Below are positions 3,501 through 21,812 of a stretch of 64,000 nucleotides of DNA, piece after piece; the first letter of the stretch is position 1, and each line of letters starts with the position of its first letter. Below the pieces are notes generated by a model. It was given only the letters and a program-made list of their open reading frames with translations. It did no database searches and was not told the origin of the DNA. The position numbers and the translations under genes are program-made. Origin of the DNA: a bacterium (GTDB lineage: Bacteria > Auribacterota > Erginobacteria > Erginobacterales > DAOSXE01). Location: assembly GCA_035380285.1 (NCBI GenBank), contig DAOSXE010000015.1:1927-65926 (forward strand), read 5' to 3'.

Positions 3501-4532
3501 CTAGAAACGGACCCCGGCGAAGCCGGTCACGGTGTTCATCCGGAAGTCGAACGCCTTGTCGAACTTTTCCCGCAGCTCCTCGATTTCGTCCGGGTCGCGG
3601 TCCAGGGCGTTGACCTCGCCGTCCGTACGGAAGTGCAGGTACGCCCCTCCGAAGAACAGATCGACCGCCTCCGAAACCGGGAACTCGATCCGGGCGCTGA
3701 GGCGGTAGGTGTCGAAGTCGATGTCGAGGTCCTTTTCGTGGCGGGTCTTGACGGGGAAATGCTCGGTGGAGCCGTTGTAGGAGAAAAAACCGTAGCGACC
3801 GGAGAGGACCAGGCGCACGCCGTCGGCGGGGCCGAGGGTAAGGTCGCCGCCGGCCCCGAGCACCGGAAGACCGATCCCGCCCCAGCCGTCGGTCTGGCCG
3901 CCGATCACGTACTCCACCGGGGGCTCCTCGTAGACGGTGGTCCCCCGGGGGGGGCCGTCGTCGAGATCGTACTTGCCGAAAATGCCGATCAGCCCCAGGT
4001 AGATCCAGGGAACGAGCGCCACCGATTCCGCGGGTTCGAAGGTGAAGGGGGTGAAAGCAAGATCGATCTCGACCAAACCGGAATCGAGCGAGGCCGTGAA
4101 CTCGTCCCCTTCCGGAATCATCATGTGGTCGTAGCTCTTCCCCCGGTATTCGATGTCGTCGTCGATCCCGATGTAGTAATCGCGGTTGGCCACGGCATCG
4201 GCGTCGGTTCTGAAGTAGGAAGCCTCGAAACTGAGGGTGAAGTATTTCCATTCCTTCTCCACCGCGATGCCGAAGATGGGAACCCGGTCGTTGAGGCCGA
4301 GGTCGTCCAGGGAATACGTGGAACCCTCGCTCTCCCTTCCGATCAGCTCGTAGTACGGGCGGACGGTCTCGGTCACCTCTCCCTCCAGTTCGGAGACCAT
4401 TCCGCCCCCGACCGAAATCAGCCAGCCCCGATCGATCCCGTCGTCGCGGCCCCAGCGAAAAACCCCGGTCCCGGCCCGGGCGGAAGCGGCCCAGCAGCCG
4501 GCGAGGGCGACGGCGAAAAGCAATCTATTCAT
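3501..4532 (-). CDS. secreted hypothetical protein, possible outer-membrane beta-barrel
   Basis: N-terminal signal-peptide-like MNRLLFAVALAGCWAASARA, alternating hydrophobic pattern, C-terminal aromatic residue (ends ...GVRF). Confidence 0.5.
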   Translation of the reverse strand: MNRLLFAVALAGCWAASARAGTGVFRWGRDDGIDRGWLISVGGGMVSELEGEVTETVRPYYELIGRESEGSTYSLDDLGLNDRVPIFGIAVEKEWKYFTLSFEASYFRTDADAVANRDYYIGIDDDIEYRGKSYDHMMIPEGDEFTASLDSGLVEIDLAFTPFTFEPAESVALVPWIYLGLIGIFGKYDLDDGPPRGTTVYEEPPVEYVIGGQTDGWGGIGLPVLGAGGDLTLGPADGVRLVLSGRYGFFSYNGSTEHFPVKTRHEKDLDIDFDTYRLSARIEFPVSEAVDLFFGGAYLHFRTDGEVNALDRDPDEIEELREKFDKAFDFRMNTVTGFAGVRF

Positions 4533-11088: not shown

Positions 11089-11281
11089 TTGTCCCTCGAT
11101 CTCAAACTTACTTTGACAACGAAAATGCGCCTACCGGAACATACGATTCGTGAAGTGTGGTTTACTTCACGACCGCGTGCGAGTATCGAGCCGCTCAGCA
11201 CGGGCGCGCAATAACCAGTGTCCTTTACCGTGCTGGCATATCATCACCGCTTTCCAGACCATAAGTACTCACTCGCTGAGT

Positions 11282-12310
11282 CTACGGCACCATCCTCGCG
11301 AAGTAAGGGTAGAGACGAGAGTACCGCTCGTAGTTGCTCATCTTGGCGATACTAACTTCCTCCGAGTCATCACCCTCAGTTAGATACCCTAGAGCGGTAA
11401 CACATACTGTCCCGTCTCCCGTTTCGGTCGGCAGAATTTCTTCGAGCTTCAGACGCTCCTTCGTGCTCAGCACCGGAACATCGATCTCATCGATCAAGCC
11501 CGAAGCAGTCACATAGAGGGGGCTCGTAGCCTTAAAGTGACCAAGCAACGCATCTCGGTTATTCTCCGGACAGAACACCCCTGTTATGCTTAACATAATT
11601 GTACCATCCGAGTACTTTGCCACCTGTAGCGGAAGAAAAGTCTTCGGCTTACTGCAAGCGCTCTCCAGAACCGATAGCACCATATGACTGAGCAACCATG
11701 GGAAGTTCTCCTCTTTGAAGTTCTCCCATGTGAACAGGTCATGGTCATAGGATACTTCTGCGACTGTCATGGCCTTCAGGTAATCATCTCGAAACTCATT
11801 GAAATCTTTCTTCTTGTAGGACGGAAGTATCTGCTGATGGCGCCGAAGCTTGACCTCCCTATATACCGGGGTCTCCGCCATGAGCGTTACCCGCAGCACA
11901 CTCCATTCAAGAGCCTGACGTGCGATACCGGACACTTCTGTCAACTCTTGTCGCCCAGCATCAACGTAATCCACCCACACAATCGTTGGTTTTTCGCTGG
12001 GAAACAGCGTTGACAGGAATTCCTCAAACCGACAGGACAGAAGTTTCACTTTTTTTGAACACTGGTGGAATTTCTGTCGCCTGTACGTCTCACCATCACT
12101 CTCAACCGACACCATGTCAAGGTTCGGGAACACGTTGCTCAGCAACCTGAAGTCTTCAAGAAACGGACCTCCAAACCCGATATACAAATGCTCTTTCAAG
12201 CTATGTGTGAGTTCAAACGTACGCAGCAACTCGACCAAGACCAAGCGATCAATAGCCTTGTTGGATCGCAAATGATATGCTGGATGTTTTGGTTTTCTGA
12301 GCCAGGTCAT
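11282..12310 (-). CDS. hypothetical protein, partner of the GHKL ATPase (4-nt overlap)
   Basis: 342-aa ORF with protein-like composition, last gene of the island gene array; no motif I can assign. Confidence 0.5.
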   Translation of the reverse strand: MTWLRKPKHPAYHLRSNKAIDRLVLVELLRTFELTHSLKEHLYIGFGGPFLEDFRLLSNVFPNLDMVSVESDGETYRRQKFHQCSKKVKLLSCRFEEFLSTLFPSEKPTIVWVDYVDAGRQELTEVSGIARQALEWSVLRVTLMAETPVYREVKLRRHQQILPSYKKKDFNEFRDDYLKAMTVAEVSYDHDLFTWENFKEENFPWLLSHMVLSVLESACSKPKTFLPLQVAKYSDGTIMLSITGVFCPENNRDALLGHFKATSPLYVTASGLIDEIDVPVLSTKERLKLEEILPTETGDGTVCVTALGYLTEGDDSEEVSIAKMSNYERYSRLYPYFARMVP

Positions 12311-13740
12311 TCCCTCGCCTCCTCAAGGATCACGTCAAAGCACCTCGCCCCAACATTGGATGGATTTCTGTCGGGGCTATCAAAGATGTACTGTGAAACA
12401 CGACGCACATCCCTGACAGCACGGGTAAAGACTATTCGCTCCGTCGTCTTCTTCTTGTCCGGTCGCGGTAACACAGGTTTGTACTGTTTGCCTTTCACGG
12501 CACCGCGCGTCGCAGTCATGTGCAATTTCAATGCTCGAGTTCGAATCTCGTCAAGCGTCGCTTTGTGTGTTGATCTCATCTCACATCGAGACTTGGCAAC
12601 GAGATCCTTACCTTTCCATTGGTTAGTGTACTGAGTGAACATCTTTGTTCCCTCAATCATCTTGTCACGCACCTGCAGGTAAAGAGGAGATGAGGCCTCG
12701 ATCCCTCTTTTGGTTGTCGTCATAGGCAAGAGATTCGCGTCATCCGCACTGAATATGACAATCCCCGATATCGCAATGAATTGCATGTGGTATTGCGGCA
12801 CTCCCGAAACTCCCCACCCAGTCAAAGGCGTCTTGTCACAGTAAACTACAGTTCGGTCGTTGCAGATCACAGTCCACCCGGCCTCTGCAGAAGAATACCG
12901 CTCCTTGTAGTTCTCAAGGCCTTCGTCTGCCTCCTCTCGGCTGGGGATCGGGCTCGTGAAACCCACAACAAGGAACACATCAACCCCATCGTGTTTCCCT
13001 TCGTAGATAAAGGGCATTATCGGGTGCTTCGATCTCACCGCTTCCTCCGCGAATAGCAGGCTTATGCTCCTAGGAGTTACCGCCTTTCCGTTGATACGGA
13101 CTTCAAACCCCTTGCCAATGATGTACGCATAGTGCGTCGCTACGGCCTCACGAAACGCTCTCTCAAAGGCTCCGGATTCGAATTCCGTACGCACGGATGA
13201 GTAAATACTTCTGATTTCAAGTGTGGTACCAAGAGTTTCTGCTGGCTTGATCGCGACTACGGGAATCAACCAGTCATCCTCTTTTGATATCCACTGCGGT
13301 GATAGCCGCAAACGGTAAGAACCGTCCTTCGCATGTGTTCTGATTGTGCAGTCCGCTCCCATCTTGAAGATGGCGCGCTTCATCCCAATTCCATACGTAC
13401 CGATGGTTTTTTTCCCCTTGTCTATGTCCGCTTTAATCCGTCCCATGCGAAAGGCGTAGTCATGGTATCTCACCGGTATCCCCCCACAGTTGTCTTCAAT
13501 CCTGAAGCGCGTCCCGTCAAACTCAATACTTGCCCAATATCCCTCGTATGGGAGACGCCTAGAAAGTTGCCGTTTCGTTTCAGCCCGCTGAATACCATCT
13601 ACACAGTTATCCAGCAGATCCAGGATCGCATCCTGAAGCTCGATGTCCCTTGTTAGCATATGTACGAAAAACGACTTGACCGGATTGGCCGGAATGTGTG
13701 GGATCTTCCTAAGATGCATCTGAGTAACCTCCTTATTCAA
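12307..13740 (-). CDS. MORC/MutL-like GHKL-superfamily ATPase (restriction/defence-associated type)
   Basis: Bergerat-fold motifs: N-box LDLLDNCVDG, G1 box EDNCGGIP, G2 box GTYGIGMKRAIF in the N-terminal ~200 aa; ~270 aa C-terminal region unassigned. Confidence 0.7.
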   Translation of the reverse strand: MNKEVTQMHLRKIPHIPANPVKSFFVHMLTRDIELQDAILDLLDNCVDGIQRAETKRQLSRRLPYEGYWASIEFDGTRFRIEDNCGGIPVRYHDYAFRMGRIKADIDKGKKTIGTYGIGMKRAIFKMGADCTIRTHAKDGSYRLRLSPQWISKEDDWLIPVVAIKPAETLGTTLEIRSIYSSVRTEFESGAFERAFREAVATHYAYIIGKGFEVRINGKAVTPRSISLLFAEEAVRSKHPIMPFIYEGKHDGVDVFLVVGFTSPIPSREEADEGLENYKERYSSAEAGWTVICNDRTVVYCDKTPLTGWGVSGVPQYHMQFIAISGIVIFSADDANLLPMTTTKRGIEASSPLYLQVRDKMIEGTKMFTQYTNQWKGKDLVAKSRCEMRSTHKATLDEIRTRALKLHMTATRGAVKGKQYKPVLPRPDKKKTTERIVFTRAVRDVRRVSQYIFDSPDRNPSNVGARCFDVILEEARE

Positions 13741-14914
13741 TAAACTCCTTCATGCGACTAAGTACGCTTTCTGCCAGAATCGGGCTGATGCTATTCCCGA
13801 TCTGTCTAAAGCTGTGCCACTTCGTCGAGTCGAACTGGAACCAGTCGGGGAAGCCCTGCAACCGGGCCGCTTCCCGGGGAGTAATGACGCGCGGCTCTGT
13901 GGGGTGAATTGGCCGAAGGGCTTGGTAGCTTCCATGCTCCGGGTCTGAGCCCGATCTTAGAGTCGGACAGAACCCCTTCCGTGCCAAACGCACAGCTCGC
14001 GAAGGCCCGTCAATGGCTCCCTCCGCCAGCTTGGCGAATCTCTCCAGAACGGTTTTCGTATGCCGTGTACCAAGACAGCCTGAAACGCGGTTCTCGTCTT
14101 GCAAGCGCCTAATCGCCTCCAGATCGCCAACACCCTCTGGTATCTTGTCGCGAATCCTTTCCCAAAACGGGCCGCTGTTGTGAGGCGTTACTGTGCGCCA
14201 ACTCTGGGCTTCTTGCTGCCACTCAGGACTGATCTTCTGGCGAAGACCTAGAAGTGCCGTCCCAACGTTGACTTTCGCGACGTTGGCAGGGGGCGCAAAA
14301 CAATCCTTCGTCAACCCGTTCGCACGCCCCACAACAATACCAATAAAGAACACTCGTTCTCGACTTGTTGCCGCGCCGAAATCCGATGCTTTGAGAATAA
14401 TAGGACCGAGGTTTATGTAGTTAGCCACTCTGGCCAACGCATTCGCGCGAACTTCGTCGAATTGAGAGTCCCGTATGCCTAGCACGTTCTCAGCAATGTA
14501 AAACGTGGGTTGAAGCTCCGCCACCAACCGAAAGAAGTGGTCGAACAGGTTGTTGCGCGCGTCATTTGGTTTGCGGCGACCGATTCGACTAAAACCCTGG
14601 CATGGCGGTCCACCGATAACCCCATCAATTCCGTTGATGTCGATTTGGGCCTTCTCAATAAGTTCTGCGCCTGTGAGTTCAGCAATGTTTGCATCAACGT
14701 ATTCGTATTTAGGGAAGTTCTTCTTGAAAGCGGATTTGGCTTGGGCATTGTTATCCACGGCTGCGGCAATCTGGAAGCCTGCGCGCGCTGCACCGAGAGT
14801 CAACCCTCCCACACCGCAGAACAAGTCAATGACCGTCGGCATACCTTCTGTTCCCTTCGCCGTTTTTCTGTTACCCGTGAAGCTCAGATCCGTCTCTATT
14901 CTTAACTGTATCAA
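13733..14914 (-). CDS. dcm: DNA (cytosine-5)-methyltransferase
   Basis: Motif I DLFCGVGG, motif IV catalytic PPCQGFS, ENV motif, C-terminal QIGNSIS. Confidence 0.9.
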   Translation of the reverse strand: MIQLRIETDLSFTGNRKTAKGTEGMPTVIDLFCGVGGLTLGAARAGFQIAAAVDNNAQAKSAFKKNFPKYEYVDANIAELTGAELIEKAQIDINGIDGVIGGPPCQGFSRIGRRKPNDARNNLFDHFFRLVAELQPTFYIAENVLGIRDSQFDEVRANALARVANYINLGPIILKASDFGAATSRERVFFIGIVVGRANGLTKDCFAPPANVAKVNVGTALLGLRQKISPEWQQEAQSWRTVTPHNSGPFWERIRDKIPEGVGDLEAIRRLQDENRVSGCLGTRHTKTVLERFAKLAEGAIDGPSRAVRLARKGFCPTLRSGSDPEHGSYQALRPIHPTEPRVITPREAARLQGFPDWFQFDSTKWHSFRQIGNSISPILAESVLSRMKEFIE

Positions 14915-15313
14915 TCACAGGCACTCCTCAAATCCATCTTCTGAAAGAATCGCTAGCCTTCCCCCTCTGCGAATCCAAGTGGCTATTCTCTTCACATCTC
15001 GGCCTTCACCAAACGCTGGGGTGCGCCTCCGAACGGCGCATTCCCAAATCACGAGAACACGCCAGCCCATATCTAGCAGTTTGCCTCGCACGCACAAATC
15101 TCGCAATCTGTTGCGTTTAATCTTCTTATTCCAAAACTGCTGATTGCTCTTTGCCTTCGGCCTTCGACCACATTCATGCCCATGCCAGTAGCATCCGTGG
15201 ACGAACACAACAGTCTTATGCCCGGCTAGAACAATGTCAGGTCGGCCCGGTAGATTCCTGGCGTGTAACCGATACCTAAAGCCTTCTCCAAACAGCGTCC
15301 TACGCACCTCCAT
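14915..15313 (-). CDS. vsr: very short patch repair endonuclease
   Basis: LPGRPDIV, FVHGCYWHGHEC and GWRVLVIWECA motifs; lies immediately 5-prime of dcm on the same strand with no gap. Confidence 0.85.
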   Translation of the reverse strand: MEVRRTLFGEGFRYRLHARNLPGRPDIVLAGHKTVVFVHGCYWHGHECGRRPKAKSNQQFWNKKIKRNRLRDLCVRGKLLDMGWRVLVIWECAVRRRTPAFGEGRDVKRIATWIRRGGRLAILSEDGFEECL

Positions 15314-15386
15314 TTCCGGGCCTGTGTTTTTCCCCGATTCGCAGCCATGATCTTGTGCCGAGTCTCAGCATTTACTCGGTCCACCA

Positions 15387-15653
15387 TCAAGACTTCCCTG
15401 CCCTTTTGTCCCGTTGATGCACTTTGTTATGACAAACGATGCACAATGTCTTCAGGTTCCCTTCAATATTTACGCTGCCCTTCACGTGATGCTCGATGTG
15501 ATGCAACTCCAAGTGTCGCGGATCGAACGGGTTCCATTCGTCGTGCGCCCACGCGCAAAACCGGCACTTGTCCCCGTCGCGCCGAAGCAACGGAAGCAAG
15601 CCGAACACACAGTTCAATCGCTTGTCCGACATAGAGATGTGGGGCGACCGCAA
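15387..15653 (-). CDS. small HNH endonuclease
   Basis: CRFC ... HHIEHHVKGSVNIEGNLKTLCIVCHNKVH (HNH motif with flanking Cys pairs); 5-prime end overlaps the end of the preceding gene so true start may be the internal Met (MSDKRL). Confidence 0.6.
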   Translation of the reverse strand: MRSPHISMSDKRLNCVFGLLPLLRRDGDKCRFCAWAHDEWNPFDPRHLELHHIEHHVKGSVNIEGNLKTLCIVCHNKVHQRDKRAGKS

Positions 15654-16720
15654 CCTGCAATCTCACCAACCGCCTGACCGACAACAGCGTATGTGTCATA
15701 GCTCGGTATCCGGAGCATTGGACCGGTGAAAGACGCACAAAGAAGAGGTACTCGTTCGCGTAGATGTGCAGACCCCAAATCTCCTCCGCCAATCTTCACA
15801 CCATGGTCAGCCACTACGAACACCCAATCGCCAGAACGAAGAAAATCCAAGAATGACTGTAGAAAAGCGTCAAACCGCTCAAGGGTTCGCCAGCACGCCG
15901 ATGCATCTCCCATGTGGGCATAACGGTCAAAATCCTCCAGATTGACCATGATAAATGCCTCGTCCTCCGCCGCTGTAACCTCTGCATTCAACAGCTCAAA
16001 GCACTGCTCGTCTCGCTCAGTTCGTACTGCCATATTCGCTGGCAAGGATAGGATTTCCTGCACCTTGCCGTTGACTATCCGTCTCCATCCAAGCGGCACG
16101 AATTTCTGCAGCAGAGACTCTCCATCGATCATCTGAAAGAAGTCACGCCGTAGTTCTTCAACCGGTTCTCCGCCACGCAACGGTCTTGCAAGCACCTTCT
16201 TCACGCATAACTCCGCTGATGCATCCAACATGCAGCGGAGTGCCTGTGCGACTTTATATAGACACTCACGGGGCACGACAATTTCATCTGCACTCACGAC
16301 CACAGTGCTGTCGAGCCCCCTATAGAGCATTATTGCCCCAGTTTGCAAATGTTCGAGCCACAACTCCGGGAGAACATCCCTGCCCCTTCCCTGTTTGTTG
16401 CCAATCAACTTAACTCCACAATTATTGCCAAGCTTCATCAGAACATCACGCGGTAGCGGTTCCGAGGGTATAGGGTGAGGTTGTTTAGTTATCCATCCGA
16501 ACATCTCGCGATGTCCTTCCTCCGATCCCACCGCGACTGACGCTTGTCTCATCACATGTCCACGACCCGTGACCGCAGCATCCAATCCCATATTAAAAAG
16601 GACTGGAAGAACGGAGATTTTGCGGCCGTACTGTTCGCACAGAGTCCCTAGGGTGCTGGTCTCACCGCCGTCAGGAGCAACTCCAAAACCATCTACAACG
16701 ATCACAAAAACGCGCGACAT
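15614..16720 (-). CDS. phosphopentomutase-like metalloenzyme (alkaline phosphatase superfamily)
   Basis: N-terminal FVIVVDGFG, central NLEDFD, C-terminal VVADHG ... HLRERVPLL, matching the DeoB-type motif order. Confidence 0.7.
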   Translation of the reverse strand: MSRVFVIVVDGFGVAPDGGETSTLGTLCEQYGRKISVLPVLFNMGLDAAVTGRGHVMRQASVAVGSEEGHREMFGWITKQPHPIPSEPLPRDVLMKLGNNCGVKLIGNKQGRGRDVLPELWLEHLQTGAIMLYRGLDSTVVVSADEIVVPRECLYKVAQALRCMLDASAELCVKKVLARPLRGGEPVEELRRDFFQMIDGESLLQKFVPLGWRRIVNGKVQEILSLPANMAVRTERDEQCFELLNAEVTAAEDEAFIMVNLEDFDRYAHMGDASACWRTLERFDAFLQSFLDFLRSGDWVFVVADHGVKIGGGDLGSAHLRERVPLLCASFTGPMLRIPSYDTYAVVGQAVGEIAGCGRPTSLCRTSD

Positions 16721-18534
16721 CAGGATTCAAATTTTCTGATTCGCAGGTTAACGAATTCAACAACTTTCCGCCAAAGACTGGCGATTGAAACTTTGCTGCC
16801 AAGCGAGAGTTCTCCTTCATACTGAAGAAGAAGAGGAATGATCGGTATAGTTACCTTTAGCTTGTCCGTAACAGAAATATCAGACTTCAGCACAGTGGAA
16901 GTAACGGAGACCCGTTCTGCGACCTTAGGCAAAATGGCTGAAGATTTTATGGTGTCACAGAGCGTCGCTAACACCTCTCTGGATTCTTCAAGCAGCGCTT
17001 TCATCTCCTCTGTTTCAGGCTCATGGTCCATCGCTGAGACGAATGACTCGACAACAACATCCCGGGCCGTTCTCGCCTCTGATACCGCCTCTGTAGCAGC
17101 GATCTTCCCTGCCATCTGAAGTTGTTCGTATTCCATGACAGACGCGACGACTCTGCCCCGTATCTCTAGGATATCTTCCTCAAGCCGCTGGATGCTTTTG
17201 GGTCGGTCCTCGACTCTCAGGGTATCTTCAGTGCGTTTGAGAAGGACGAAGTCCTTGCGTAGATTATCCCGAATATCTTCCAGCCTCTGTTTCTCTACCG
17301 GTATCCCGTTAGCCACTGTTTCGTCCTTCCTCTCTTCACAGGATCTGGGAACGCCGACGATTCTCCTCACATCGGTCAGAATATCCTTTGGGGCCGATGC
17401 CTCGGAGACAGCGCCAAGAATATGCACCAATGCTGTCACGCTCGAACGTATCCGCTCTGGGTCCGAAAGCAACCCGCGTCCCATTTGAATCATCACGTCC
17501 GCACCAAATGTCTCAACGTTCTGAAATATTTCTTCGAGGAAAATACTTCCCGAAGAAACAGCGAAGCATGGTCTGAGACCATACTGATCGCCCTGTAGCT
17601 TTTCGATTTCCTCCTTCAATATTGCTTGCTCATACGGAAAATCCTGGGTGAACGGCCCTGTGTAGACAGCATCTCCACCTGCAAGTCGCGAAAGTAGGGC
17701 AATTACCTGCTCCGCTAGGTAGTGCGTGCTCTTGCGCGTCAATACACCCCGGCCGATGTTGTTCACAACGAATGCTGTCTGACCATCACACGTATCGATC
17801 ACATGCCTGACAGCCGAAAAACCCATCGCGATACAGTTGAGGGTAAAACCACAAACGCCATGGCGCTGTCCATCCTCGACCAAGCGCAAGGATGTCTCCA
17901 CATCTGCGGTTGCATTCATGAAGTAGCCCAACTTGCGCCCCGTTTTCTCTTGGGCTGCAGTAACTACGGTTTCAATGGCCTGTGCGCGTTGTCCAAATGG
18001 ACTACAACTTGGGGACACGAGCAACTCGTCGTCAATCACGTAGTCAACACCACCCTCCAATGCTCTTTGCACTGTTGGGAGAATATCAGATAGACTCATG
18101 CGCAACCGCGGTTTCAGGATGAGCCCCAGAAGCGGCCGTTGGGAAACACCAAGAAGCTTCCTAATCCCTGATACACCATACCTTGGCCCCTTGTATTCAT
18201 CGAGGCAAACTTTGGGCAATGCCAGATCCACCACGGCAAATCGCTTCAGCGCTGAAAAGACAGAGCAATAGCACACACTCCCTAGGAGCATGGCGAGACC
18301 CGTACCAAGTCCAGCAGAACAAGGCGGCAGGGACAAAAGCACTTCAAGCTCGTTCTTGGATTGATCAATCTCACGAACATCGAGAATCTCTGGGTCTTCG
18401 TGAAATTCACAAGGCTCATCGGTACGTCGCAGCGGAATCGTTCCGGTGCTGCCTAGATCCATCGCAGCGAGGAGTTGCTTCAGCCCCTTCTCACGGTTTT
18501 CTAGGATCATGTGAAGTGTTACAGTTGCATGCAT
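16720..18534 (-). CDS. RuBisCO large-subunit-like protein (RLP) with Lys-to-Ile at the carbamylation position and a ~200-aa C-terminal extension
   Basis: [29 protein letters not shown] parallels the RuBisCO [30 protein letters not shown] signature; [10 protein letters not shown] aligns to [18 protein letters not shown] parallels GHYLNATA; C-terminal region is charged and coiled-coil-like. Confidence 0.7.
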   Translation of the reverse strand: [604 protein letters not shown]

Positions 18535-18543
18535 AATCGATCC

Positions 18544-19113
18544 TTAGTGCTTAACGTCAATGACTTTGCCATCTACAAGAAAGGTTCCGCTCGTCAAGTG
18601 GTACACCTGCGGTATTGCACTTCTCAGTTTTATCTTATCCTCTGAGAACAATTCTTTATCGATATCTGCTGCAACGACCAATCCAACAACAACGTGGTGG
18701 TTTCCTGCCTCCTTGTGCCATTGCAGCTTACATTCCAGATTGACTGCACATTCTGCTATCCGCGCGGGCTTCACCTTGTTCCTCGCATATGGTGTCAATC
18801 CCGTTTCCTCAAACTCATCCACGGCCGGCGGATACTCGTTAGCAGCCTGGTAAAGTTGAGTCAGAATCTTGCTCGTAGGAATTCCTACCACAAACTCGCC
18901 GGTCTTTGAGATATTCTTGAAGGTGTCAGACTTTGGCGAGATACCAAGCGCAACCATCGGGGGGCACGTCGAACACGGCGTGAACATAGCGTAGGGTGCC
19001 AAGTTCTTAACCCCCGCTGTGTCGACCGTTGACACGAGTACAACAGGGGACGGCTGAACCAAGTAGACAACTTTTGCAACTTTGTCTAAGACCTCGATCT
19101 TCTGATACTTCAT
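18544..19113 (-). CDS. flavin reductase-like (FMN-binding split-barrel) protein
   Basis: VVLVSTVD...NLAPYAMFTPCS..PPMVALGI...DTFKNISKTGEFVVGIP pattern typical of flavin reductase family. Confidence 0.7.
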   Translation of the reverse strand: MKYQKIEVLDKVAKVVYLVQPSPVVLVSTVDTAGVKNLAPYAMFTPCSTCPPMVALGISPKSDTFKNISKTGEFVVGIPTSKILTQLYQAANEYPPAVDEFEETGLTPYARNKVKPARIAECAVNLECKLQWHKEAGNHHVVVGLVVAADIDKELFSEDKIKLRSAIPQVYHLTSGTFLVDGKVIDVKH

Positions 19114-21059
19114 CTTGTATCTCCTCTCATCTGATCTACCATTTCAACCAAATCCGCAAAAACAAGGTCTGGCCGGGAATCATGCGTGCGTCGAGCCACA
19201 TCTTCAGCAGTACTTATCCCTCCAAGAACAAGGCAAGCCAACGCTCCAGCCTTTCTGGCTGCTGCTATGTCAGTATCGAGCGAATCCCCAATTACGGCTA
19301 CCTCTTGCGGTTTCATACCCATAAGATGAAGTAGAAGGCGAAGCGAGAAGTCATTTGGTTTCCCCACGACAAAGGGCGATTTGCCAGTTACTGTTTCAAT
19401 TGCAGCCACAATCCAGCCAGTTCCGGGCTTGTCCATACCCGGAGCAGCGAACACACGATCCCGGTCCGTGCATACGAACTCCGCACCCTTCAAAATTGCT
19501 CGCTGGGCTGCCACTAGGTCGGCATATATGAAATCCTTTGAATAGCCAACGACAACTGCGTCAATGTAACCAGTGTGATCATTGGCGGCGATATCCATGC
19601 CACCGCAGGCGAGCAACTCAGGTAGTGCTGGTGCTCCACCCAGCACCAAGCAACACCTGTATCCCTTAGTGCGGCAATACTCGGCAGCGGCAATAGTGGA
19701 CGTCATGATATGCCGCGGGTCCGCTATCACGGCCATCTGGCCGAGTTTGTCTGCTAACTCCTGCTGCCTTCTTACGCTCGTGTTTGTCAAGAAGCCAACT
19801 GTAACGCCAGATTGTCGCAAAATGCGAATGGCCGCGAGGCTGGCTTCTATCGGCTTGTCTCCTTTATAGAGAACACCGTCGAGATCCAGCACAACTCCCC
19901 GTTTTGAAGCCAGATCCCGCAGCTTATCCGTGGACTTTACTGGCACCCTCGGATGGCGTGGCTCGCGTGGGCGTGAACATTGGATCGTATAGAGCGACCT
20001 CACGGCGGTATTCCAGGATAGCTTGTACTCTTCATGGCCGCGCATGAAATCAACTTCCTGTAGCCCGTTATCGCAAGCCCATCGAATCGCTTCACCCAAT
20101 AGCACTAGCCCCGGAGAACAATCGTCTAACGCCAAATCAAAGGATGTGTTCCAGTCATAGTATCTGCCACCACGGATGAAGCCCATCCGATAAGCAACTA
20201 TGTTGCCGTTCAGAAGCAGATGAAAAAGACAGAAATTCCCGGTTCCGGCGAAATCTTTCGCAACGTCATGAATGAAGCCTCTGCGCCTTGTGTCGGCAAA
20301 TGCTTGGACTCCGTGAATACTGTCCCAACGAGTATCATGGAGATCAAATAGACGTTCGAGGGTTTCATGGTCGTAATCCCGGACAACTTGGAGTTCTACC
20401 TTGCCGCGGCGGCGCAGAGCCCGCATCTTGCGGTTCAGCATTCGCCGCCGGTTTCTTGTCCGTGACTTAAGATACTTATCCCAAGAACAACCAAGTTCTA
20501 TATACGGCGCATCCTCTGCCCTGACAATAACCGGTGATAGACCGCAATCTTGAAGTGCACGTGTTACAATGTGCAAGGTGACGTCATCTTGCCGTATGTT
20601 TTGTAGCCTTATTTCATCCCATTCCAAATGGTCGCACATCGCGGCTGCGATGCGGTCGATAGGATCACATGCAAAGGCCGAGAAGACTCCGCCTAGGTAG
20701 TCACTACAACAATCAGAAAGAAGCGTAAGGATCGTATGGGATCCTACGCGTTTGCGCATCAGAGGCAGAATGGCAAGAACGTCATCTCCCAGCGCGGCCC
20801 AGAAGATGGACAATTCCCTGTCAGAACCGAAGTGGCCCCACCAGTACGAAAGCCAACGTGGATCAACCGAGACTGGAAGGTTAGGCTGTTTTTCAAGGAT
20901 CTTAACCCAGTGAGGGTAGATTGCGGACCACTCCTCATTGCTCCTCACAACACCGACCTGGGCCCTACGATAGTCGCGTTCCGTCGACATGTAGTTACGC
21001 AGGGAATATTGCCAACTTGTCTGTGATGCATCCAGCCAGCTATCGCTGCACATCATCAC
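19110..21059 (-). CDS. fusion protein: large N-terminal FemAB/CelD-like acyltransferase-type domain (tentative) plus C-terminal HAD-IIA phosphatase domain
   Basis: C-terminal HAD motifs in order (VVLDLDGVLY, FLTNTS, GKP, IGDSLDTDI) are clear; N-terminal ~370 aa Trp-rich domain assigned by resemblance only. Confidence 0.65.
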   Translation of the reverse strand: MMMCSDSWLDASQTSWQYSLRNYMSTERDYRRAQVGVVRSNEEWSAIYPHWVKILEKQPNLPVSVDPRWLSYWWGHFGSDRELSIFWAALGDDVLAILPLMRKRVGSHTILTLLSDCCSDYLGGVFSAFACDPIDRIAAAMCDHLEWDEIRLQNIRQDDVTLHIVTRALQDCGLSPVIVRAEDAPYIELGCSWDKYLKSRTRNRRRMLNRKMRALRRRGKVELQVVRDYDHETLERLFDLHDTRWDSIHGVQAFADTRRRGFIHDVAKDFAGTGNFCLFHLLLNGNIVAYRMGFIRGGRYYDWNTSFDLALDDCSPGLVLLGEAIRWACDNGLQEVDFMRGHEEYKLSWNTAVRSLYTIQCSRPREPRHPRVPVKSTDKLRDLASKRGVVLDLDGVLYKGDKPIEASLAAIRILRQSGVTVGFLTNTSVRRQQELADKLGQMAVIADPRHIMTSTIAAAEYCRTKGYRCCLVLGGAPALPELLACGGMDIAANDHTGYIDAVVVGYSKDFIYADLVAAQRAILKGAEFVCTDRDRVFAAPGMDKPGTGWIVAAIETVTGKSPFVVGKPNDFSLRLLLHLMGMKPQEVAVIGDSLDTDIAAARKAGALACLVLGGISTAEDVARRTHDSRPDLVFADLVEMVDQMRGDTR

Positions 21060-21572
21060 TCCTGTTACTTGCTTTTTTCTTCCCGGGCGGCGAGATTCTC
21101 CTCAATCATGCGTGACACAATCCAAGAGAGCGAACGCTCCTCTTTCTCCGTCAACTCTTCCAAGATTTCTTAGACTTGCGGGGTAACTCGGACGCTCAGG
21201 AGTTTTATTTTCAGTTCAACCTTGTGCCTTTTCGTAGGGTGTACGACGTCATGCATTTGCATGCTGATTTTAATAATATATGATGTGTATGCTGTGTGAT
21301 GATAGTAGAAAGAAGAAGGATCCGATAAACTGCTTTCTGTATGCCCATTAGTCGATTGATTAGTCCACCCGTCAGATGCTATAAATTGAGGCGCAGGTCA
21401 CGGGACTTTTGGAGTATGCCCAGAAGGAACGTCTGCATCGTGGAGAAGTTTACGGAATTCATGACAGCATGGAAACCGGGCTGACCGGTTTTCAATGCAA
21501 TGATGGATCGGGGAGTCAAATGCGCTGCTCGCGTGGCTCCCTGACCGCTTCGGGCGTAACCCACTCGGCGGG

Positions 21573-21736: not shown

Positions 21737-21739
21737 TCG

Positions 21740-21812
21740 TGGAGCTGAGGGGATTCGAACCCCTGACCCCATGGCTGCCAGCCATGTGCTCTCCCAGCTG
21801 AGCTACAGCCCC
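21740..21812 (-). tRNA. tRNA-Ala (anticodon GGC)
   Basis: Reverse complement folds as cloverleaf: acceptor GGGGCTG/CAGCTCC with G3-U70 alanine identity pair, D-arm GCTC/GAGC, anticodon loop CTGGCAG, T-arm AGGGG-TTCGAAT-CCCCT; CCA not encoded. Confidence 0.9.

Follow-up and report, generated by a model that had tools for sequence, protein, structure and literature searches.

A RuBisCO-like protein family without the carbamylated lysine, encoded in a four-gene cassette and ending in a module that immune-type proteins also carry

The window that is described here, i.e. the whole stretch of 64,000 nucleotides that was analysed (forward-strand positions 1,927 to 65,926 of contig DAOSXE010000015.1, assembly GCA_035380285.1, from a bacterium of the Auribacterota lineage DAOSXE01), contains a tightly packed, partly overlapping operon, the third gene of which encodes a RuBisCO-like protein that carries isoleucine at the position of the carbamylated lysine of RuBisCO and that ends in a conserved C-terminal module. 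The other genes of this operon, to which we refer as the cassette, encode a GNAT-fold domain fused to a HAD phosphatase (gene 1), a flavin-reductase-like protein (gene 2) and a phosphopentomutase homologue (gene 4); the coordinates of all features are given in Table 1. The stop codon of the RuBisCO-like open reading frame (ORF), at positions 16720-16722, overlaps the start of the phosphopentomutase-homologue gene by 1 nucleotide. The database copy of the protein (P0001, 596 residues) begins 8 codons downstream of the start of the 604-residue ORF; the longer ORF is favoured here, because the N-terminus that it provides, "MHATV...", is conserved in relatives.

The N-terminal part of the protein belongs to the RuBisCO superfamily: the Pfam model RuBisCO_large (PF00016) matches residues 121-377 with 86.4 bits (gathering score 30.1; E 2.7e-24), and, of the solved structures, form III RuBisCOs match most closely (8dht, E 1.7e-31; 3a13 of Thermococcus kodakarensis, E 2.7e-28), followed by form I enzymes and by the RuBisCO-like proteins 3nwr, the Chlorobium tepidum protein and MtnW. 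In the AlphaFold model of the full protein, computed from ten family sequences and of moderate confidence (mean pLDDT 63.8), the first ~400 residues align structurally with chains of RuBisCO and of RuBisCO-like proteins (Foldseek E 8e-23; target-normalised TM ~0.6); the superposition extends over ~400 columns and therefore both domains of the fold, i.e. the N-terminal alpha/beta domain and the TIM barrel, are present in the model.

The carbamylated lysine of RuBisCO, Lys201, is both the general base and a ligand of the metal. In the window protein, this position is occupied by Ile167: the HMMER alignments, which are free of gaps at this motif, set it against "LSGGMDYIKDDENLTSP" and against the shorter comparison strings "GGMDYIKDDE" and "GADYMKDDE", while the adjacent Asp169 and Glu170 coincide with the metal ligands Asp203 and Glu204. 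The possibility that the lysine has merely shifted by one or two residues is ruled out, the motif alignment having no gap and there being no lysine within several residues of the position. Elsewhere in the active site, K175 is kept as K141, while K177 is replaced by R143, H294 by N258, R295 by N259, H298 by R262 and H327 by Y291; the K334 loop is absent, and the "GGG" phosphate loop reads "GRG". Of the catalytic set, only K175, D203 and E204 are thus kept, and the carbamylated lysine of the Mg2+ site, by which the characterised form IV members stabilise an enediolate, is absent.

Carboxylation by this protein is very unlikely, because H294, R295 and H327 are replaced in addition to the lysine, the K334 loop is gone and the scores against the RuBisCO equivalog models are far too low: the NCBIfam scores are 140.7 bits for type III (cut-off 497), 149.6 for PRK04208 (cut-off 438) and 35.8 for form II (cut-off 489). 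The models of known RuBisCO-like enzymes are missed as widely, with 105 against 409 bits and 83 against 514 for the two MtnW equivalogs and 91.7 against 700 for OiaX. The first-pass annotation of this DNA, which had been made by eye from the letters alone, is borne out on these points: its homology to the RuBisCO large subunit is supported by the Pfam score, the form III structures and the Foldseek superposition, its substitution of lysine by isoleucine and its retained Asp-Glu ligands are recovered in the HMMER alignments (the former also in multiple alignments), the other RuBisCO motifs that it had quoted are found as well, with the K175 motif aligned and K141 present, and its view that the protein is not a carboxylase agrees with the lost catalytic residues and with the equivalog scores.

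Where active-site residues have been replaced, the new residues vary little or not at all among members of the family that are only 27-58% identical to the window protein, as is seen in the motifs "NNIGRG", "DAVYTGP", "SSG" and "QMG.G"; this invariance of the replacement residues argues for a ligand site that has been remodelled and yet remains functional, rather than for decay. Four cysteines (C42, C72, C90 and C177, the last being C178 in relatives) are also nearly invariant in the family, and two cysteine clusters are located beside former active-site positions, one in the motif "YCSVF" of the N123 region and the other in the motif "SP.CC", directly after the DDE ligands; an altered metal or redox site at these clusters is possible.

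The first search for relatives returned nine full-length clusters of 584-608 residues, 32-100% identical to the query, and later searches brought further members; the family is nevertheless extremely rare and patchily distributed. The Lys201 column contains isoleucine or valine in all 13 of the aligned members, four more distant ones included, and lysine in each of the 18 outgroup and reference sequences, i.e. a form I enzyme, two form III fragments, MtnW, two tetronate-type RuBisCO-like proteins (which adjoin four-carbon acid sugar kinase genes), P0011-13 and nine metagenome relatives. The same division occurs across 48 metagenome loci: the ORFs that score above 400 bits on the profile of the family core all have isoleucine and the C-terminal module, while those below ~160 bits nearly all have lysine and are without the module, the exceptions being two incomplete ORFs of the isoleucine/valine type, one split (L040) and one cut at the end of its contig (L066).

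In a neighbour-joining tree (384 columns, 200 bootstraps), the family is monophyletic with 100% support, as are its module-bearing members, i.e. the family with a Zixibacteria sequence excluded; it groups with the form IV proteins in 96% of the bootstraps and with form III in 4%, although the references are few and the family sits on a long branch, so that its exact position is provisional. On this grouping, and with the carboxylase residues lost, we read the family as a new, rare clade within the form IV RuBisCO-like proteins. We find no described clade that lacks K201, judging from the sequences compared here and from the Global Ocean Sampling survey, in which N123, K177, D198, F199, H327 and G404 are listed as the poorly conserved RuBisCO sites and K201 is not (PMC1821046).

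The characterised form IV proteins with which the family was compared, i.e. MtnW, the methylthioribulose-1-phosphate isomerase of Rhodospirillum rubrum, OiaX of the tetronate/apionate pathway and the Chlorobium tepidum protein, share with it the two-domain fold, a non-carboxylating active site, the proximity of sugar-phosphate enzymes and the motif "DDEL" where true RuBisCOs have "DDEN". It differs from them in the lysine, which every RuBisCO-like reference and outgroup sequence compared here retains, in the addition of a module from conflict systems (and of a TIR domain in two members), in the make-up of its cassette and in its setting in defence or mobile islands. Form III RuBisCOs of pentose bisphosphate and nucleoside degradation provide the best structure matches and the best NCBIfam scores, and they too are associated with enzymes that handle nucleotides and pentose phosphates; the window protein, however, retains none of K201, H294, R295, H327 and the K334 loop, its family joins form III in only 4% of the bootstraps, and neither a ribose-1,5-bisphosphate isomerase nor an AMP phosphorylase is linked to the cassette.

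Wherever a family locus has enough flanking sequence, the four genes recur with their order preserved, across at least 11 distinct lineages and down to an identity of ~30% to the RuBisCO-like protein of the window; the loci include one on the complete chromosome of Ruminococcus sp. JE7B6 (NZ_CP162391.1, around 825-830 kb), and one locus has a changed gene order. The HAD domain of gene 1 has an intact DxD motif ("LDLDG"), and the Thr, Lys and DD motifs can be recognised in its sequence. It is of subfamily IIA (NagD/Pho2/phosphoglycolate-phosphatase-like); the structures nearest to it are those of archaeal Pho2 and of NagD-type phosphatases, and the NCBIfam model on which it scores highest, with 154.6 bits where the cut-off is 475, is that of the archaeal TK1734 2-phosphoglycolate phosphatases. 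The flavin-reductase-like protein of gene 2 is the most conserved of the cassette, with 49-71% identity in four-gene loci where the RuBisCO-like protein has 30-58%; no monooxygenase partner is encoded with it. In the phosphopentomutase homologue, all metal ligands are kept, and the nucleophilic threonine is replaced by serine. A scan for promoters and terminators performed no better on this DNA than on shuffled sequence.

Several loci depart from this arrangement or extend it. In a metagenome-assembled genome of Zixibacteria (L008:2908-7467), a gene with the HAD domain alone and the flavoprotein gene (3773-4327, left uncalled in the annotation) accompany a RuBisCO-like protein that has the isoleucine and is without the module; the gene of this protein is followed by those of a 113-residue protein with apparently several transmembrane segments and of a 477-residue zinc-ribbon protein without a family match. 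Homologous thymidylate-kinase-like (34% identity) and NUDIX (41%) genes flank this distant variant (L008:1526-2746) and a second one (L015:118-1259), a guanylate-kinase-like gene, a Vut_1 transporter gene and a phosphoribosyltransferase gene lie upstream of a third variant (L017), and one cassette is followed by an FGGY sugar kinase gene. Taken together, these neighbours point to pentose phosphates that would be derived from nucleotides.

The extension that follows the core, ~225 residues long and conserved in the family, had been described in the first-pass annotation as a long, charged and coiled-coil-like stretch; it is indeed real, helical and conserved, but it is not a plain coiled coil, being instead a defined module that is common to immune-type proteins and that is helical apart from a conserved beta-hairpin motif. 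An exhaustive search with a profile of the extension alone against 1.84 billion representative proteins has found the module in at least 758 of them at E<=1e-3 and in 192 at E<=1e-10, with a module length of 190-235 residues; many of these proteins are stand-alone modules of ~230-245 residues, and in the others, which are 340-1270 residues long, the module is mostly C-terminal. The residues of the motif that are nearly invariant in the RuBisCO-like family are K558, L559, P564, I565, I566, P567 and Y572, and the P, I, L and Y columns of the motif, "KLK.T.PIIP.LL.YEGE", are conserved over 36-60 module proteins.

The domains that accompany the module have been read from a Pfam scan of 60 module proteins and from ten proteins that were scanned individually. 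They comprise STAND, AAA_16, NACHT and nSTAND NTPases with TPR, HEAT or WD40 repeats; the DUF4062 (NADase), TIR_2 and Cap17-like ATP-nucleosidase N-domains; GGDEF domains and adenylate/guanylate cyclases; receiver (Response_reg), GAF and Roc GTPase domains; and the RuBisCO-like core. The module itself is matched by no Pfam, NCBIfam or PADLOC model and, by sequence profile, by no solved structure, the returns being coiled-coil noise only; the same noise was all that ten module proteins (six stand-alone and four with a short extra region) gave against PADLOC. A word-index search with the module profile returned 12 proteins, all of them unnamed, and a look-up of the module clusters gave no informative names.

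The module was modelled from 36 sequences: its first helical hairpin is predicted with a pLDDT of 93-98, the later helices are less confident, and the hairpin of the motif is the least confident (Table 1). Low confidence at the best-conserved motif suggests that this motif may be structured, i.e. ordered, only within an assembly.

In its non-enzymatic and largely helical nature, and in its occurrence both on core NTPases and effector enzymes and alone, the module resembles the effector-associated domains (EADs) of NTPase-centred conflict systems (Kaur et al. 2020, PMC7159879), which are described as small domains. EAD7 is found together with the module in the same proteins, and none of the Pfam EAD models matches the module significantly, with EAD9 at an E-value of 1.6. 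The module differs from the EADs in its size, which is 3-4 times that of the 62-position Pfam models of EAD7 and EAD9, in its conserved beta-hairpin motif and in that there is no paired copy of it near the RuBisCO-like gene of the window. In one other locus (L012:3567-6883), however, a stand-alone module gene (246 residues) overlaps by 4 bp the start of the gene of an 859-residue TPR protein, residues 11-52 of which repeat the motif of the first hairpin of the module (E 8e-8); this is the single such pairing seen, and it resembles the homotypic pairing of EADs (PMC7159879).

The RuBisCO-like family is also joined to a second domain. In an intact cassette (L025:3360-5648), the third gene encodes a 762-residue protein that consists of the RuBisCO-like core (with "NYIIDDE" at the lysine position), a TIR_2 domain (E 9e-32; catalytic glutamate motif "...YCKAEW...") and the module, in this order; its closest relative (P0050, 83% identity) is without the TIR insertion. 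The same order of core, TIR and module is found in an N-terminally truncated fragment (P0176), and since the two sequences are only 58% identical to each other, the architecture is real and maintained. The closest TIR domain (64% identity) is located in a TIR-metallophosphoesterase protein (P0186). Bacterial TIR domains are immune enzymes that cleave nicotinamide adenine dinucleotide (NAD) or make signals, and the TIR insertions are, from the domain assignments, the strongest single link between the RuBisCO-like family and immunity.

Enzymes that carry an auxiliary domain are known among such effectors: DUF4062 of the "Swarozyc" proteins has been shown experimentally to be a TIR-like anti-phage NADase, in which the auxiliary domain at the C-terminus varies and serves to sense the phage (bioRxiv 10.64898/2026.05.01.722283). 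The window family resembles the TIR, DUF4062 and Cap17-like effectors in that the same C-terminal module occurs on TIR_2, DUF4062 and Cap17-like_N domains and in its location in defence islands. It differs from them in that the auxiliary domain that has been studied in Swarozyc is a winged helix rather than the present module (bioRxiv 10.64898/2026.05.01.722283), and in that its N-terminal enzyme has the RuBisCO fold and is obligatorily encoded with three further enzymes. We have found no RuBisCO fold among the defence systems of PADLOC or of the literature searched, and no paper that ties RuBisCO-like proteins to defence.

In the window, the cassette is located in a low-GC island with sharp borders at ~11.1 and ~21.5 kb, adjoining a tRNA-Ala gene. 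The tRNA-type signature of island integration has been rejected: the 3' end of the tRNA-Ala gene is not repeated elsewhere in the window, and the island contains neither an integrase nor an att repeat. Downstream of the cassette, a row of overlapping genes (the second block of Table 1) looks like a restriction-modification-like or other defence module, judging from its protein families; the Dcm, Vsr and HNH genes of this row are the only matches to PADLOC-DB v2.0.0 in the neighbourhood. Outside the island, in high-GC DNA that is host-like, lie the genes of an elongation factor G homologue and of a Memo-AMMECR1 fusion protein.

Table 1. Features of the window around the RuBisCO-like gene; positions are those of the window.
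Feature	Position	Strand	Basis or remark
RuBisCO-like protein with C-terminal module (cassette gene 3), 604 aa, ATG start	16720..18534	-	ORF
RuBisCO-like core, aa 1-378: shortened N-domain and TIM-barrel catalytic domain	17401..18534	-	PF00016, Foldseek, secondary structure
Ile167 codon at the carbamylated-Lys201 position, followed by Asp168-Asp169-Glu170 (D202, D203, E204)	18034..18036	-	alignments
C-terminal module, aa ~412-604: helical hairpin (aa ~413-474), more helices, conserved beta-hairpin motif, terminal helix	16723..17301	-	profile search, AlphaFold
Most conserved motif of the module, aa 556-576, predicted beta-hairpin (low confidence)	16807..16869	-	conservation, pLDDT ~45
Cassette gene 1: GNAT-fold domain (Acetyltransf_6) fused to HAD-IIA phosphatase, 649 aa	19110..21059	-	Pfam, structure matches
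Cassette gene 2: split-barrel protein predicted to bind flavin mononucleotide (FMN), flavin-reductase-like, 189 aa	18544..19113	-	PF01613 E 2e-26; PDB 1eje E 1e-26
Cassette gene 4: phosphopentomutase homologue, 368 aa	15614..16720	-	E ~1e-29 to Bacillus cereus phosphopentomutase
Low-GC island, 10.4 kb, GC ~0.51 against ~0.66 in the flanks; cassette and Dcm/Vsr/GHKL-ATPase/Methyltransf_35 block	11100..21500		GC, Pfam
Overlapping genes: Methyltransf_35 (342 aa), GHKL ATPase (HATPase_c_3, 477 aa), Dcm C5-methylase, Vsr nicking endonuclease, HNH	11282..15653	-	
Small HNH nuclease gene, 88 aa, sharing 40 nt with the end of the mutase gene	15387..15653	-	not conserved in other compared cassette loci
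tRNA-Ala(GGC), island edge	21739..21812	-	tRNA call
Elongation factor G homologue, 716 aa	8869..11019	+	
Memo-AMMECR1 fusion protein, 512 aa	21927..23465	+	

The neighbours of the other cassettes have been collected within 10 kb, and most of the loci contain defence or mobile-element genes: type III restriction-modification, GmrSD, a transposase and Cmr2 in one locus; DUF87 and DruA in another; AAA_23 and putAbiC in L017; a serine recombinase, a YhcG nuclease and a group II intron reverse transcriptase in the Ruminococcus locus; a resolvase, ParA and a DnaD-like protein in L025; and an integrase in the Zixibacteria locus. Large HD-CE proteins are encoded beside the cassette in two loci (L007:254-3301 and L025:7375-9786); the one in L025 also has a GHKL ATPase domain, and the GHKL ATPase gene of the window lies a few genes from the cassette.

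Our best explanation of these findings, which we hold tentatively and at slightly less than an even chance, is that the RuBisCO-like protein is the non-carboxylating hub of a horizontally mobile, probably anti-phage, four-gene pentose-phosphate cassette; a role of some kind in conflict or immunity, taken by itself, is probable. The cassette would form part of the gene pool of bacterial conflict (anti-phage) systems, in which the mutase and the phosphatase would produce or use up pentose phosphates that stem from nucleotides, NAD or ADP-ribose, and the RuBisCO-like core would bind that sugar phosphate at its remodelled site, where K175, D203, E204 and part of the phosphate-binding loops are kept and I/V167, N258, N259, R262 and Y291 make up a new invariant set. 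The core might then either carry out an enolisation or isomerisation of the sugar phosphate that is independent of a carbamate, or merely sense it; the new chemistry could come from Lys141, or from Cys90 and Cys177/178, which are conserved and lie beside former active-site positions, and the module may couple the core to an assembly-dependent activation or output during infection. The homologies, the substitutions, the cassette, the distribution of the module and the genomic settings are observed here, whereas the class of substrate, a part in immunity and what the module does are inferred.

In its boldest form, which we consider possible yet doubtful, this explanation amounts to an immune system of a categorically new type: a RuBisCO fold without a carbamate would sense or effect a nucleotide- or NAD-derived pentose phosphate together with the mutase, the phosphatase-acyltransferase and the flavoprotein, and would be wired to cell death through the module, which would itself serve hundreds of immune proteins of the TIR, DUF4062, cyclase and STAND kinds as a major adaptor or effector domain.

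A number of observations weigh against our explanation. None of the four cassette proteins is matched by a model of PADLOC-DB v2.0.0; no member of the family has been found among the IMG/VR viral contigs, the INPHARED phages or the PLSDB plasmids; and the window encodes no partner protein with the same module. The immune role is based on the raw association in about a dozen loci, and the FGGY sugar kinase and the other kinase and NUDIX neighbours look simply metabolic. The AlphaFold models are of moderate to low confidence, with mean pLDDT values of 63.8 and 71.0 and with ~45 at the conserved hairpin motif, and the core, having lost the carbamate, may be wholly non-catalytic.

This last point is the substance of the first alternative, which we regard as rather unlikely: the core would be a catalytically dead sensor that only binds a sugar phosphate, either made or left unconsumed by the enzymes of the cassette, with the module or the TIR domain as the output. 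It overlaps our own explanation, from which it differs on the turnover of a substrate by the core, and it draws on the replacement of the RuBisCO general base and metal-ligand lysine in 13 of 13 aligned members, on the position of the module behind receiver, GAF and STAND-repeat domains, i.e. where an output domain is located, on the placement of TIR after the core in two members, and on the Zixibacteria variant, which has no module and is followed instead by the 113-residue, apparently multi-transmembrane protein, resembling many small effectors. The invariance of D203, E204 and K175 and of N258, N259, R262, Y291 and S328 is, however, equally compatible with catalysis, and three further, apparently active enzymes are always encoded alongside, as they would be in a pathway.

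An ordinary metabolic operon is a more distant alternative, and we consider it unlikely: the cassette would serve the catabolism or salvage of a rare pentose, nucleoside or acid sugar, with the module used for oligomerisation and the islands reflecting the transfer of a niche trait. All four proteins are of metabolic enzyme types, the characterised RuBisCO-like proteins all act in sugar-phosphate catabolism or salvage, and all through an enediolate (PMC10176493), and the FGGY kinase at one locus, the nucleotide kinase and NUDIX genes at others and the lack of a PADLOC match also speak for it. Against this stand the named partners of the module in 60 proteins, which are conflict and signalling domains, their top 25 families including no metabolic enzyme except for the RuBisCO-like core; the TIR domain in two members and the defence or mobile genes within 10 kb of most loci; the rarity and patchiness of the family; and the absence of a conserved transporter or regulator of the kind that is typical of catabolic operons.

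Phosphopentomutase interconverts pentose 5- and 1-phosphates, which is the entry to nucleoside synthesis, and the phosphopentomutase homologue of the cassette speaks for a third alternative, i.e. the biosynthesis of a modified pentose or nucleoside, such as an antiviral nucleoside analogue or a nucleotide for the modification of DNA, with the mutase supplying a modified pentose-1-phosphate to which a base would be attached and kinases activating the product. In L017, the cassette is immediately preceded by genes for a phosphoribosyltransferase, a guanylate-kinase-like protein and a putative base transporter, two variants have thymidylate-kinase-like and NUDIX genes, and the acyltransferase and the flavoprotein could tailor the sugar; but the conserved core of the cassette includes neither a base-attaching enzyme nor a kinase, no DNA-modifying transferase is linked to it, and the shared module and the TIR insertion suit effector or sensor proteins better, so that we find this alternative quite improbable.

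The last alternative, which had been hinted at in the first-pass annotation, is a RuBisCO-like protein of methionine salvage, either an MtnW-like enolase or a methylthioribulose-1-phosphate isomerase, that would be paired with a HAD phosphatase. The HAD domain two genes upstream speaks for it, as does Bacillus velezensis, where MtnW is followed by the phosphatase gene mtnX; it is nevertheless rejected as hardly credible: MtnW keeps the lysine and the present proteins form their own isoleucine/valine clade, the scores on the MtnW models fall far short of the cut-offs, the HAD domain is of subfamily IIA, fused to GNAT and not of the MtnX type, and no mtn genes are located nearby.

What is new here is a clade of RuBisCO-like proteins, together with its fusion and its context; the chance is substantial that this clade points to an immune system of a new kind and reveals a large family of undescribed modules. 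For the biology of RuBisCO, a conserved clade without the lysine would show either a new way in which the fold activates sugar phosphates or the conversion of the fold into a ligand sensor. For phage defence, the cassette is a candidate system of no more than four genes, whose enzyme families are unrepresented in PADLOC v2, and it occurs in a cultured isolate, Ruminococcus sp. JE7B6, and is hence directly testable. The function of the module of 190-235 residues, which has no family model, could explain how many immune-type proteins are activated or kill, and the link of a pentose-phosphate cassette with a TIR NADase suggests that there may be an unexplored layer of immunity that acts on the ribose phosphates released when NAD and nucleotides are cleaved.

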